Assembly: GCA_045120135.1 (NCBI GenBank)
Contig: JBGVEN010000017.1
Span: 12,278 to 76,277 of the forward strand
Direction: 5' to 3'
DNA from: Monoglobaceae bacterium
Lineage (GTDB): Bacteria > Bacillota > Clostridia > Monoglobales > Monoglobaceae
DNA length: 64,000 bases
The position numbers were made by a program, and so were the translations under genes. The notes below the pieces were generated by a model, which worked only from the letters and a program-made list of their open reading frames with translations, made no database searches and was not told where the DNA came from. Within the stretch, counting starts at the first letter, position 1. Every line of letters begins with the position of its first letter. Below, one piece after another: positions 30,001 to 35,527 of the stretch.

Positions 30001-32788
30001 GCTTGGCGCAAGTACGGTTGTAACAGCTACAACAACAGGCGACCAAAGTTTTACTCCGCCTAAAATTGTGACAACCTATGATGGCATAGGCAAAGTAATC
30101 TCAGAGGAAAAACGCAACAATATCACCGATGCAGTGCTGACGAGGGACGAGTATAGCTATGACTTTTTGGGTAATGTCAAGGAGTATAGGGACAGCCGTG
30201 TAAACCTTGACGGAGTGGGAACGTTCACAACCCAAACAGAGTATAACTGGCAGGGACTTCCCGTTAAAGAGACAAATGCTGTCGGCGACGCAAAGCTCTA
30301 TGCCTATGACTTGCTTGGTAGACTTGTGGAGGCACAGGACGAAACAGGGTCAAAAACTATGTTTACATATGACCAGCTTGGCAGAGAAATCGTTGCGGAA
30401 AGTGAGATAACCGATACCGAAACCGCACGGACGGAAAAATATTACGATTTGAGCGGTAATGTGGTGAAAGAGAGAACCAAGAACAACAAAGCTGGACAGT
30501 CGACTGCTTACCGCGAGGTATGCTATGAGTATGACAGTATGCATCGCCCGACGGTTATCAAGACCAATGATGGCACAAGGGATATCTATACTCAGTATGC
30601 TTATGACAGCATGGGCAATGTTACAAAGGTTGTTACGGGTCAGACCCAAAAGCTTGATATGAGCGGTGAAATTCCACAAACCGCCAATGTTACACTGTAT
30701 GAGTATGACCGTTTTGGAAATGTAACAAAAACAACCGATGCAAACGGACTTTTCGAGACGGCGGAATATAACTATATAGGTTTGCCAATCACAACCACCG
30801 ACAAAAAAGGCGGGACAACTGCATATACATATAATGTCTACGGCAGTCGGCTGACTGCTTCGACAGCAGGGGTTGATACCATCAGCTATACCTACAATGT
30901 CAATAATATGCCGATTTCTGTGACACAAGGTGCAAATACCACGATTTATGAATATGACGCCCTTGGCAGATTGACAAAAGAGACAGAAAATGGTATAGTA
31001 AAGACATACAGTATGGATAAGCTTGGCAACCTCATATCGTCAAATGTGGGCGGTGTTGAAACCGCTTATAGCTATGATTTGCTCAATCGCTTAACAGGCG
31101 TAATCTTTGACGGCGGAAGTGCAGGCTATACCTATGACAAGATGGGCAGAATCATAGGCGAGACAAAAGGCGGTATTGAAACAAGCTATACCTACAACAA
31201 GGCAGGCTGGCTGACAAATAAGACAAATACCAAAGACAATGCAACAACTGCCTATGCCTTGACCTATTCCAATGACGGAAATATTGTAACAAGAACCGAA
31301 AACGGCGAGGTTACAAACTATACCTACGATAATTTAGGTCAGCTTGTTGCGGAAGATAACACCTTGTACGAATATGACACAAGGGGCAACCGCACAAAGA
31401 TGACCAAAGACGGAATTGTGACCGAGTATCGTTATGACCGTACAAACAAGCTTATGACCGAAAATACAAATGGCGTGTGGACGGCTTATGCCTATGACCA
31501 AAATGGCAATAATACATTAAGAGAAGTGTACGAGATAACAGCTGATGGAATGCAGGATGAGCTTTACTATCTTATTTTGAAGTATGACCCCCTTAATCGC
31601 CTGACAAAAGTACAAAAGGATGGTATGACTGCTGAATATATCTATGGCGTTGACAATATGCGTAAAAGCAAGACGGTGAATGGCGAAACGGAAAAGTATA
31701 TTTGGGATGGCGCGAATATAGTCGGTATTACTGATAATGAGGGTGTAATAACAAACAGATACTACCGAGGTGTAGGCTTAATCGCATCAAAAGAGAATGA
31801 TGTATTGAGTTATTATCAAACCAACGACCACGGCGATGTATCGGCTTGGGGTGGAGTATCATACAATTATGATGCGTTTGGTAATCAAAAAGACCAAAGT
31901 GATGATGGCAATCCGTTTAGATTTTGCGGAGAATATGCCGACGTTGAGAGCGGACTGATTTATCTCCGAAATCGGTATTATGACCCACAATTGGGACGGT
32001 TTATCAATGAAGACCCGATTAGGGATGGGCTTAATTGGTATGTTTATTGTGAAAATAATCCTGTTATGTTTGTTGACCCAACGGGATTACATTACGAGGA
32101 TGTTATAGCTGATTTAAGCACAATAGTAAGCGCCAAAGCACGAATGTTGTCTGCCCCAAGGTACAGCACCGAGTATAGGCTTGCATACCAAAACGCTATG
32201 CAAGCAAAAGAAAGTATAAGTAACGATGTAATATACATTGAAAATCTCGACGGGTTACGGTCGGTTTTGTCACCAATTGTAGAGGGTGATAACAACTCAT
32301 TGGAAAGTTTAAAGGGCGCTAGAAGTAGCGTTGAAACAGCGCTGAATGACTATAACAGAGGGCGGATTATAGATGATATTGTTACAACTGGGTTGTTGAC
32401 AGCTGGTGGAGCTGTTGCTATAAAAGCGGGAGTAGGAGCTTTAGCGGGGAAAATTGCTACAAAGGTAGCACCTGCTGCTTCTGTGGGATTTCCAACATTT
32501 AATAAGCTTAAAGAATATCTAGGTAGCCCGGGAAGTGGTAATCATTGGCACCACATAGTTGAACAATGCCAAATTGTGAAATCAGGATTTTCGGAATTTA
32601 CTATTCATGCGACCAATAATATATACGCTGTTAATGCTGACATACATGCTAAAATAACAGGATATTATGGCTCCATACAATCTTTTACAGATGGTATGAA
32701 GGTTAGAGATTGGTTAGCGGGGCAAAGCTTTGAAGCACAATATCAATTTGGAATAAATGTTTTAAAACAGTTTGGGGTTATAAAATAA
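27059..32788 (+). CDS. RHS/YD-repeat polymorphic toxin with an N-terminal signal/anchor and a C-terminal HNH/EndoVII-like (WHH/AHH-type) toxin domain
   Basis: Dozens of YD repeats (YxYDxxGN/R...). The Rhs core end reads [39 protein letters not shown], followed by a ~230-aa tail ending [10 protein letters not shown]...NNIYAV...HAKI. The likely start is ATG 27059 (GAGGTGG RBS); the track ORF starts at 27038. Confidence 0.9.
   Translation: [1909 protein letters not shown]
31928..32016 (+). repeat. 89-bp repeat, copy A, at the end of the RHS core (encodes [30 protein letters not shown])
   Basis: Base-for-base identical to the reverse complement of 35439-35527; flanking bases differ on both sides. 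Confidence 0.95.
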
Positions 32789-33108
32789 TGAAAGAAGAGT
32801 TTTTATATAATTCAAATAAATTTTATGAATACCATAATAATAATCAAATAGACAATGCAAATGAACATGCAAAGAGAATGAATTTAATCTTAAAAGATAT
32901 TGTTAATGAAGATTCATTTGACACTTTTTGTGATGATATTTTACTGTCCCAAAATTCAATTGCGATAATTTGGGTTTGTGGGTTATGTATCGATTATAAC
33001 TATAGACGAGATGATGCCATTGAGATTCTAAAAGAGTTATCTTATAATGAAGATGAAATAATTTCTCGTGATGCAAGTATGTTATTGTTTGTGAAACTAA
33101 GGGAATAA
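32788..33108 (+). CDS. Putative cognate immunity protein of the RHS C-terminal toxin
   Basis: 106 aa. The start overlaps the RHS stop (TAATG). Assignment rests on position only. Confidence 0.55.
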   Translation: MKEEFLYNSNKFYEYHNNNQIDNANEHAKRMNLILKDIVNEDSFDTFCDDILLSQNSIAIIWVCGLCIDYNYRRDDAIEILKELSYNEDEIISRDASMLLFVKLRE

Positions 33109-34822: not shown

Positions 34823-35527
34823 CTATTGTATCGTTTGAAGTCTAATCTTATTTAAAGAAAATAACGACATAAAGGCACCGAGTACGGTCATTTCCTTTTC
34901 AATGGCATAAGCCTTCACAGTATCCCAATTTGTTATTTTATAGTAATCGTAAGCTATAACACCATCACCAGCATACCTATATGAAATGTAATATGCATCT
35001 ATATTTATGTTTTGAACAAAGCTACCCGGTGCTATCTCACCACCTACATACAAATCCGTATCTGAGTGGTCTTTCCATTCATTAGCAACATATTTTTGTA
35101 CCTGTGTAACACCTTTTGCAATTTGATTGGGTTTATCTCTCTTAACATCCCATACAGCACCATCATTACTGATAAGATCTGCACGTCCCCAACCAAAATC
35201 ATAATATATTGTTTGTTCAGTATTCAAATCATATATCGAAGCTACTTTTTTCACAACGAGATTGTGAATTTGTCCTGGATATGCGAGCATCCCCGTAGAA
35301 TCAATATATTTTAAAGGATTATTCATACAATAAACATACAAGTTACTGCTTTGCATTATTGCATTTATGTCAGGAATTTTTGTTTCTCCGTCCTTATACT
35401 CTTTATCCCCATAAACCATATTGTTAGTATTCCAATATGGGTCTTCATTGATAAACCGTCCCAATTGTGGGTCATAATACCGATTTCGGAGATAAATCAG
35501 TCCGCTCTCAACGTCGGCATATTCTCC
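34823..35527 (-). other. Orphan RHS C-terminal toxin cassette (no start codon of its own), possible PD-(D/E)xK nuclease tip
   Basis: It begins with the 89-bp RHS-core repeat just after an in-frame TGA. It continues ...NLYVYCMNNPLKYIDSTGM (core-end motif), then a unique ~160-aa tail with GWGRADLISNDGAVWDVKRDK (D...D-x-K pattern). Confidence 0.75.
35439..35527 (-). repeat. 89-bp repeat, copy B, inverted, at the 5' end of the orphan cassette
   Basis: Perfect reverse complement of 31928-32016. Confidence 0.95.

Follow-up and report, generated by a model that had tools for sequence, protein, structure and literature searches.

A convergent Rhs toxin locus with a spare tip beside a large serine recombinase gene, and a candidate tip inversion between its core-end repeats

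The diversification of polymorphic toxins is generally attributed to recombination with orphan cassettes in direct repeat, a slow process that entails loss. The subject here is an Rhs toxin locus in which the spare cassette is inverted, located in a 64,000-nucleotide (nt) stretch of DNA (hereafter, the window) from a Monoglobaceae bacterium (GenBank assembly GCA_045120135.1, contig JBGVEN010000017.1, positions 12,278 to 76,277, forward strand), and comprising a full-length Rhs gene, a start-less orphan tip with its own putative immunity gene, and a large serine recombinase (LSR) gene next to the orphan. In the Rhs main/orphan pairs of Salmonella (PMC3967940) and in Rhs/CdiA C-terminal displacement (Poole 2011, PMC3150448; Zhang 2012, PMC3482391), start-less C-terminal/immunity orphans likewise share the core-end, and homologous recombination in the core-end fuses the shell to a new tip, as is proposed for the window. 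The known Rhs cases are direct repeats (522 bp, 95%) with loss of the main tip and its immunity gene, whereas the repeats of the window are inverted and exchange between them would be lossless and reversible; the orphan of the window is also joined to an LSR gene, which the Salmonella and CdiA systems do not have. In the direct arrangement of Salmonella Typhimurium, recombination deletes rhsI-main, and a prior duplication is needed (Koskiniemi 2014, PMC3967940). No inverted Rhs orphan switch turned up in the searchable literature, in agreement with the original prediction for this DNA, which had called inverted orphans unusual.

Inversion of alternative C-terminal coding parts is known from tail-fibre and pilin switches, namely Mu G/Gin, P1 C/Cin, e14 P/Pin, p15B Min, and the R64 shufflon/Rci. 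As in Mu G/Gin and the shufflon, the constant N-terminal part of the window's toxin gene lies outside the segment, opposed C-terminal parts and an accessory gene lie inside it, and a recombinase gene lies just outside. The Mu/P1 type employs small Hin-family serine invertases with 26–34-bp sites and an enhancer, and Rci is a tyrosine recombinase with 19-bp sites, whereas the neighbour here is a 521-residue TndX-like LSR, and the repeats are 89–179 nt of coding homology whose likeness gene conversion appears to maintain; neither hix/gix-like nor shufflon-like sites were identified at the locus. Phase-variable inversion of hsdS in Type I restriction-modification loci is reportedly found in pneumococcus (SpnD39III/ivr, with CreX/PsrA) and in Bacteroides fragilis. 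Those loci share with the window an expressed gene with inverted silent partial copies, repeats of tens to hundreds of bp in conserved coding sequence, an adjacent recombinase gene, and no loss of DNA; they differ in shuffling target-recognition domains with a tyrosine recombinase and in having mixed populations shown experimentally, whereas the present locus is known from sequence alone. By analogy, the locus resembles Mu G/Gin, the shufflon, and hsdS switching, but would not be placed in those families, because its neighbouring recombinase is of a different kind.

Two further comparisons concern the recombinase. In the rAID arrays of Bacteroidales (Ross et al., 10.1101/471110), as here, a recombinase gene is linked to orphan immunity genes or toxin fragments on mobile DNA, but the rAID recombinase is a tyrosine (XerD-like) enzyme and the array a defensive immunity collection without frame-compatible joining to a toxin shell, whereas the recombinase of the window is of the serine type and its gene is linked, at a fixed codon, to a spare tip that is complete. 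The LSR shares with DUF4368 TndX-like LSRs (PMC10083194) the succession Resolvase, Recombinase, Zn ribbon, and DUF4368, a position at a mobile-island edge, and variable downstream sequence; the members described there insert elements at many targets, and the part of that source consulted describes no link to Rhs core-ends or to inversion. Judged by homology, the parts of the locus are of known kinds: an Rhs toxin with an orphan module, a TndX-like LSR, and a RayT transposase with REP elements. The features on which the argument rests are as follows, with lengths in amino acids (aa) and open reading frames abbreviated as ORFs.

27038 to 32788, plus strand: full-length Rhs/YD-repeat toxin gene, 1916 aa (ORF; Pfam RHS_repeat, E = 5e-45, seven stretches; translation)
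31928 to 32016, plus strand: R, the shell-linked repeat copy (repeat scan, alignment, translation)
32017 to 32788, plus strand: tip1, the current tip, with linker, 'HYEDV..AIKAG..APAAS' pre-toxin domain, and C-terminal toxin domain (translation, homology)
32090 to 32482, plus strand: the pre-toxin domain, 131 aa, between the DPTGL motif and the C-terminal toxin (homology)
32788 to 33108, plus strand: putative immunity gene of tip1, 106 aa (ORF; start overlaps the Rhs stop codon)
34122 to 34814, minus strand: putative immunity gene of tip2, 230 aa, weak DUF4304 match (ORF, Pfam, sequence)
34823 to 35438, minus strand: tip2, the orphan tip, with YWNTNN linker, IDSTGM cleavage-type motif, and toxin domain (translation, homologues)
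35439 to 35527, minus strand: R', the recombinase-linked repeat copy, heading the start-less orphan (repeat scan, alignment, translation)
35528 to 35557, minus strand: conserved 30-nt spacer from LSR stop to R' (comparison of loci)
35558 to 37123, minus strand: LSR gene, 521 aa, transcribed towards the orphan (Pfam, homologues)

Pairwise alignment bore out the exact 89-bp inverted repeat that had been predicted, with 31928–32016 being the reverse complement of 35439–35527 at 89/89 positions (chance expectation for such a pair within the window, 4.5e-44), and a repeat scan of the window returned inverted arms of 103 nt at 94% (31914–32016 and 35439–35541). Both copies of the 89-nt repeat are read in the same frame and encode the same 30-residue Rhs core-end stretch starting GEY. 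The edges are sharp, as claimed, but divergence beyond them is not fully immediate, since 8/14 nt directly upstream of the repeat still match between copies, and a second, weak inverted repeat (32032–32085 and 35292–35345, 54 nt, 74%) covers a shared N(W/L)YVYCxNNP..DxTG linker. The inverted repeats are placed at the boundary between constant and variable parts, with the alternative C-terminal coding parts opposed inside. Recombination within the repeat would invert 32017–35438, joining the shell in frame to tip2 and its immunity gene, and the same inversion would place the present tip beside the recombinase gene; frames and ORFs agree with the predicted geometry of this 3.4-kb inversion, including the in-frame fusion and the exchange of tips.

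The Rhs gene runs from a signal/N-terminal region through the YD shell, core-end, and linker with cleavage-type motif to the current C-terminal tip, and the core-end is followed by a PxxxxDPxGL-type demarcation beyond which homologues diverge and the tip is unique. The pre-toxin (HYE) domain of tip1 is rare (14 clusters among 1.84 billion protein representatives, E ≤ 1e-3), and because it is paired with a different C-terminal toxin in a related locus, L171, it implies a second level of modularity inside the tip. The toxin domain of tip1 had been called HNH-like; no family match was returned by Pfam or PDB sequence searches, which leave that label unsupported, and the HWHHIVEQ motif in the domain is visible by eye only. 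The 106-aa ORF after tip1, with neither a Pfam family nor a PDB sequence match, is considered a putative immunity gene from its position. Upstream of the Rhs gene is a 294-aa ORF, likewise with no Pfam or PDB sequence match, and not homologous to the 299-aa ORF that precedes the Rhs gene of another relative, L008.

The orphan is start-less and carries a different tip, as the original prediction held. Upstream of GEY its frame is closed by in-frame stops ('..EMP*NQLQHTL*YS-GEYADV..', asterisks marking stops), its core-end piece has no start codon, and after the 89/89 homology the frame is open for 204 codons, through an unrelated intact toxin domain, to the stop at 34823. Internal TTG and ATG codons are present, and NCBI annotates a 198-aa ORF from 'MVYGD' (protein P0001). 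The toxin family of tip2, with about 137 detected homologues, bears a PD-(D/E)xK-like signature (GRADLIS..VWDVK), and an alignment of homologues showed that tip2 retains every invariant residue; no Pfam or PDB sequence match gave a family assignment. Immunity gene 2 begins 8 nt past the orphan stop with an AGGAGA ribosome-binding site (AGGAGA-N6-ATG), so the close coupling that had been described is present, and the gene is probably translationally coupled to the orphan tip, its protective role being putative. A 65%-identical copy of tip2 occurs in L001 as an ordinary direct-orientation orphan followed by a DUF4304 gene, with direct repeats 86–92% identical. With intact ORFs on both sides and the invariant residues of tip2 kept, both toxin modules look functional.

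The convergent layout, LSR, spacer, orphan tip, immunity gene, and RayT facing immunity gene, tip, and Rhs shell, was found in three loci: the window, L171, and L091. L171 is a 64.7-kb ENA contig whose LSR falls in the same 90%-identity cluster as that of the window and which shares the flanking deacetylase, helix-turn-helix (HTH), and M78 genes (81–86% DNA identity); it occupies the same chromosomal site as the window locus. The LSR is followed there by spacer, R', tip, immunity gene, a 162-aa ORF, RayT, and Rhs fragments, and these are faced by a convergent series of immunity gene, tip, R, and a full-length Rhs gene, with an inverted repeat of 179 nt at 91% and a shell 39% identical to the window shell and 71% to the L008 shell. 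The structure of L171 is independently confirmed by the Logan unitig L172, which ends 57 nt into R', equal to the 27 nt to the first R/R' mismatch of L171 plus 30 (k-1). L091 is a JGI contig with an LSR ~55% identical to that of the window; past the LSR come a 'Y*YS' spacer, R', tip, Imm-NTF2 gene, and RayT with REP inverted repeats, met convergently by an orphan with immunity gene and the main Rhs gene with immunity gene; its inverted repeats measure 139 nt (93%) and 142 nt (87%). In both relatives the repeats lie at the constant/variable boundary with opposed tips inside, as in the window, and in all three loci homology between the copies begins exactly at the G of GEY. Direct orientation was seen in L008 (Rhs, Imm32, 49-aa ORF, LSR, orphan, further orphans) and, similarly, in L090, and no further convincing convergent loci were found among the distant LSR loci L092, L098, L115, and L155.

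The copies of the core-end were compared over 89 nt from the junction. R and R' match at 89/89 positions in the window and at 86/89 in L171, and the three copies of L091 match among themselves at 78–83/89. Between genomes the agreement is lower: the R' of the window matches those of L171, L006, and L005 at 68/89, 67/89, and 63/89, and the R' copies of L171 and L006 match at 78/89, so that LSR-linked copies agree at 63–78/89 although the LSRs are at least 87% identical and their genes 83–89% identical at the DNA level. The main copy of L171 matches the LSR-linked copies of L006 and L008 at 80/89 and 73/89, and the main copy of L008, which has the closest shell (71% identical), at 50/89. The core-end copies thus follow their same-genome partner and not the flanking genes, the pattern of concerted evolution by gene conversion. 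Seen independently in the three convergent loci, this pattern indicates that R and R' undergo ongoing recombination. In the direct locus L008, main and LSR-linked copies match at 50/89 and are not homogenised, as would be expected where homogenisation of direct repeats would lead to loss of the DNA between them. In the convergent loci the homogenised tract spans all available homology, from the spacer junction to the divergence of the tip families, which accounts for the sharp edges of the repeat.

A further line of evidence comes from the HYE module, which is shell-linked in the window and LSR-linked in L171. The two copies are 70% identical over 185 aa (74% over 522 nt of DNA), these 185 aa past the junction comprising R, linker, and the 131-aa HYE domain. 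In both loci the HYE tip is followed by a same-strand immunity-like gene and then by RayT, and the whole block of R, HYE tip, immunity gene, and RayT is inverted between the window and L171 relative to the shell and to the LSR, M78, HTH, and deacetylase markers. This is a hint that the two loci are in opposite phases, and counts as support, not proof.

The reading preferred, held with moderate confidence, is that of a convergent main-plus-spare Rhs locus whose two core-end copies recombine homologously, converting the repeats and inverting the 3.4-kb segment. R would end the shell, and R' would head a promoter-less, start-less spare module of tip and immunity gene; gene conversion between R and R' would keep the copies identical, and crossing-over between them would invert 32017–35438. 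Inversion would create an in-frame fusion of shell and spare tip, followed directly by the spare immunity gene, and would leave the former tip, with its immunity gene, lying behind the gene of the recombinase, with no DNA lost and both immunity genes retained in either state. The spare immunity gene would probably be transcribed by read-through from the LSR gene, which is plausible since a terminator scan showed no terminator-like site from the LSR gene to immunity gene 2, and a hairpin follows immunity gene 2. Since nothing would be deleted, the self-sensitivity problem of direct-repeat orphans in Salmonella would be removed, and the arrangement would permit a reversible change of weapon with immunity to both toxins kept and no fratricide problem of the Salmonella kind. 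A useful inversion frequency, a RecA-type agent, and read-through expression of the immunity gene are presumed in this scheme. Recurrence with unrelated shells, together with the concerted repeats, makes the locus a candidate for phase-variation-like toxin switching in Gram-positive (Clostridia-like) gut or environmental bacteria.

Several points weigh against inversion by homologous recombination. At 89 bp the repeat is close to the minimum length of an efficient RecA substrate, and the rate may therefore be low. The relatives are mosaic, with C-terminal toxins, immunity genes, shells, and RayT (~48%) differing between the window and L171, so that the opposite-phase comparison is no clean before-and-after comparison, and RayT with its own REP inverted repeats could flip alone. 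Homologous recombination alone would also leave the constant joining of LSR and R' unexplained. The flipped state of this strain, which a single assembly represents in the searched collections, was not found in any assembly or protein there: the only 100% match in a search with the orphan-tip protein was the source genome (P0001), and no long Rhs protein with tip2 was returned; a search with core and tip1 gave no close shell relative (best match 55%); an exact look-up of P0001 and exact-DNA scans of IMG/VR for the 89-mer and the spacer junction gave no match; and a scan of genome contigs with one protein query gave only an irrelevant Desulfobacteraceae locus. The invertible tip switch that had been proposed thus stands in its geometry and in the recombination favoured between its copies, and both orientations within one strain were not seen in the searched sequences.

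The joining of the LSR to Rhs core-ends was examined across relatives. Its Pfam matches are Resolvase (2.6e-25), Recombinase (3.5e-23), Zn ribbon (3.5e-13), and DUF4368 (7.2e-12), and its stop codon is 30 nt from R'; the proximity of this gene to the repeat and the neighbouring RayT, both mentioned in the original prediction, are confirmed and are not incidental, since both recur in related loci. A start-less Rhs core-end follows about 30–75 nt past the LSR stop in at least 12 loci (the window, L003, L004, L005, L006, L171, L172, L008, L009, L090, L091, and L092; LSR identity ~48–100%), and the junction falls at the same codon, (R/*)Y(S/C/T)-GEY. With LSRs 87–100% identical (L003, L004, L005, L006, L171, L172), the spacer is followed at that codon by the core-end GEY.D.E.G.IYLR.R.YDP..GRFI.EDP, and the contigs that continue differ from one another in toxin tip and immunity gene. 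The Logan k=31 unitig L003 (SRR25030051) stops 30 nt (k-1) into the core-end, and the NCBI contig L004 stops 26 nt into it. The tier of ~48–56% (L008, L009, L090, L091, L092) has the same junction with gaps of 34–75 nt, L009 retaining only a ~50-aa core-end stub past the LSR. In L011 (2215–3107) a vapBC-like pair (AbrB-type antitoxin and PIN toxin) lies between the LSR stop and a 'LLKYRYSG' core-end remnant, displacing the junction. Among distant LSRs (37–41%), Rhs 3' fragments cut elsewhere follow directly in L115, L155, L039, L024, L098, and L130, and most other loci of that tier are without an Rhs motif. No literature linking LSRs to Rhs orphans was found in the searchable record, and this clade of LSRs joined to start-less core-ends is apparently a widespread and undescribed linkage. 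The junction could reveal a new target class or function for LSRs, also of interest for genome engineering.

The spacer itself is a decayed Rhs codon remnant ('NQLQHTL*YS' with in-frame TGA). It is shared without change by L003, L004, and L171 and nearly so by L005 and L006, and its 'GATACTC(A/T)GG' persists as far as the ~55% LSR tier, with the variant GATACTGCGG in L009. As side observations, L115 and L130 are one 41-kb IMG/VR contig (3300007991_000330) with two LSR genes, each followed by a start-less Rhs 3' fragment with a different cut position; a spacer hairpin with compensatory changes is seen between L008 (11582–11637, GCAGTATAA..TTATACTGC) and L009 (3469–3522, GCAGTGG..CCACTGC); and a conserved 48–49-aa ORF just upstream of the LSR in L008 and L009 may encode a directionality factor or regulator.

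A possible, though doubtful, alternative is a site-specific switch or cassette system in which the DUF4368 LSR acts at the spacer/core-end and shell/core-end junctions, inverting the segment in convergent loci and excising or integrating a cassette of core-end, tip, immunity gene, and LSR in the direct loci L008 and L090. It would account for the fixed junction codon, for R/R' homology that starts exactly there in the convergent loci, and for the non-coding GATACT core of the spacer being kept to the ~55% tier; the LSR ORF is intact, with a serine-containing N-terminal catalytic motif conserved across 30 homologues, and in L008 and L090 a 3.3–3.9-kb unit (core-end, tip, immunity gene, small ORF, and LSR) sits between the shell and an older start-less tip, as expected from cassette integration. 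A site-specific crossover would not, however, homogenise 89–179 nt of flanking sequence, so homologous recombination must be acting anyway. Canonical LSRs act on attP and attB sites whose half-sites differ, whereas here the right arms are identical and, on the left (shell) side, the arms of the window and L171 agree at only ~8/18 nt despite LSRs of the same 90%-identity cluster; no att site could be defined, and dyad or att-like features seen by eye around the junction were unconvincing. In a breakpoint comparison of the L171 main gene with L008, identity falls from ~75% to ~58% at the junction, a drop not sharp enough to separate site-specific from homologous exchange. DUF4368 LSRs are moreover described (PMC10083194) as transposase-like integrases and not as invertases.

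An extension of this alternative, entertained only tentatively, is that the LSR clade is dedicated to Rhs diversification, recombining its fixed junction with the shell/core-end junction of full-length rhs genes. If true, convergent loci (window, L171, L091) would be reversible two-state toxin/immunity switches, direct loci (L008, L090) would mobilise 3–4-kb cassettes of tip, immunity gene, and recombinase into resident Rhs shells, and the whole would amount to a self-mobilising, integron-like cassette system for polymorphic toxins.

Unlikely, in turn, is that the arrangement is a by-product of a mobile element, with a TndX-like LSR element ending past the LSR stop, the Rhs core-end being its preferred target or captured end, the orphan remnant or cargo, and the inverted repeat incidental, with inversion rare and without a selected role. 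DUF4368 marks a multi-targeting, TndX-like clade of transposase-like integrases according to Durrant et al. 2022 (PMC10083194), and sequence just downstream of the domain is hyper-diverse, as at a mobile-element end (preprint 10.1101/2024.01.18.576133); the HTH, M78, and LSR genes lie at the edge of a low-GC island with outer flanks that differ between the window and L004, junction positions vary among distant LSR subclades, and the short stub of L009 also fits this origin. Insertion into rhs would nevertheless require a truncated shell opposite the LSR module, and none was seen in any locus examined. Nor have the tips and immunity genes linked to the LSR decayed, as they are intact, and the recurrence of the convergent layout with unrelated shells and homogenised repeats points to continuing interaction of the copies. 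A chimeric or collapsed contig creating the repeat or the orientation is highly improbable: the source appears to be a draft assembly (139-kb contig), contigs of relatives break at the repeat, and a de Bruijn graph leaves it ambiguous which way a segment flanked by inverted repeats is turned if no reads cross the repeat, but typical reads and large assembly k-mers are longer than 89 nt and can therefore span it, the end of L003 at k-1 nt is the prediction for a genuine repeat boundary, and the layout was assembled independently in L171 (ENA) and L091 (JGI), whose imperfect repeats assemble unambiguously.

Between the two modules, inside the segment, lie a transposase gene and REP-like repeats.

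33117 to 33186, no strand assigned: REP-like repeats containing GGGGACGT, left arms of the inverted pairs flanking RayT (repeat scan)
33232 to 34014, plus strand: RayT-type Y1 transposase, IS200-like domain and C-terminal extension (Pfam Y1_Tnp, E = 4e-17; inside the invertible segment)
33999 to 34117, no strand assigned: REP-like right arms and a hairpin at 34038–34079 (repeat scan; homologous flank after the L171 RayT)

The motif GGGGACGT occurs 5 times in the 64-kb window, against 0.95 expected, and only at 33117–34117. RayT and immunity gene 2 converge on the hairpin at 34038–34079, which probably serves both as a bidirectional terminator. RayT homologues of 47–49% identity occupy the same position in L091 and lie near an Rhs fragment in L007, a Y1_Tnp gene occupies that position in L171, and the arrangement of a Y1 transposase with flanking inverted REP copies is the same in L091 and L171. 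A REP-like family, GGGGACGTACATTTTT, was located at 33117–34117 of the window, 5670–8017 of L091, 9046–15380 of L171, and 11250–11500 of L005, and RayT with this family stands between convergent Rhs modules in three loci. RayT and REP elements seem to travel with Rhs islands rather than being scattered over the chromosome. The orientation of RayT was considered as a phase marker and rejected as unambiguous evidence, since the RayT genes are only ~48% identical and each has its own flanking REP inverted repeats.

Upstream of the LSR gene, the following features complete the end of the island.

37140 to 37330, minus strand: strongly structured insertion of ~190 nt separating the M78 gene from the LSR gene, at the promoter of the latter (comparison, folding)
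37368 to 38066, minus strand: M78 peptidase gene, ImmA/IrrE-like (Pfam)
38059 to 38538, minus strand: Cro/C1 HTH gene, paired with M78, with consensus promoter (Pfam)

The insertion is absent from L004, L005, and L006, carries a second copy of the TTATAAT -10 box of the LSR promoter, and has a predicted fold of about six hairpins (DNA minimum free energy -51 kcal/mol, z = -10.1; no Rfam match); it looks like a miniature inverted-repeat transposable element or small structured element and may alter LSR expression. In L171, a 4.4-kb block (5634–9900; DUF2806, Schlafen-like helicase, small ORFs, REP-bounded) is inserted between the M78 and LSR genes, so the HTH-M78 pair and the LSR need not be contiguous. 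That HTH, M78, and LSR form the end of an ICEBs1-like element extending away from Rhs was considered and rejected, the DNA past the HTH gene being host-like and different between the window and L004. No close relatives turned up in plasmid (megablast) or phage (tblastn) collections, the LSR being at most 37% identical to phage or gut-virome recombinases, and no inner/outer att pair, circular junction, or empty site was found at the LSR loci compared.

The low-GC island extends over ~11000–38600 (0.31–0.40, compared with 0.43–0.49) and carries, apart from the Rhs locus, the following genes.

12343 to 13500: Fic gene
15559 to 17010: second large serine recombinase gene, without DUF4368
17173 to 17661: relaxase fragment
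18013 to 20035: amidoligase/GATase pair
21244 to 21837: small resolvase/invertase-type gene, 10 kb away from the repeat and not linked in relatives
23867 to 26161: MG2-domain surface protein gene, 764 aa, upstream of the Rhs operon

Homology with L004 ends ~60 nt upstream of the HTH gene, near 38560, which marks the island/host boundary. An Rfam search of 31000–39500 gave only a spurious mir-191 match, on a palindrome at 38583–38658. This palindrome lies at the boundary, immediately beyond the polysaccharide deacetylase gene and about 20–30 nt from where the L004 homology stops, and is probably a bidirectional terminator.

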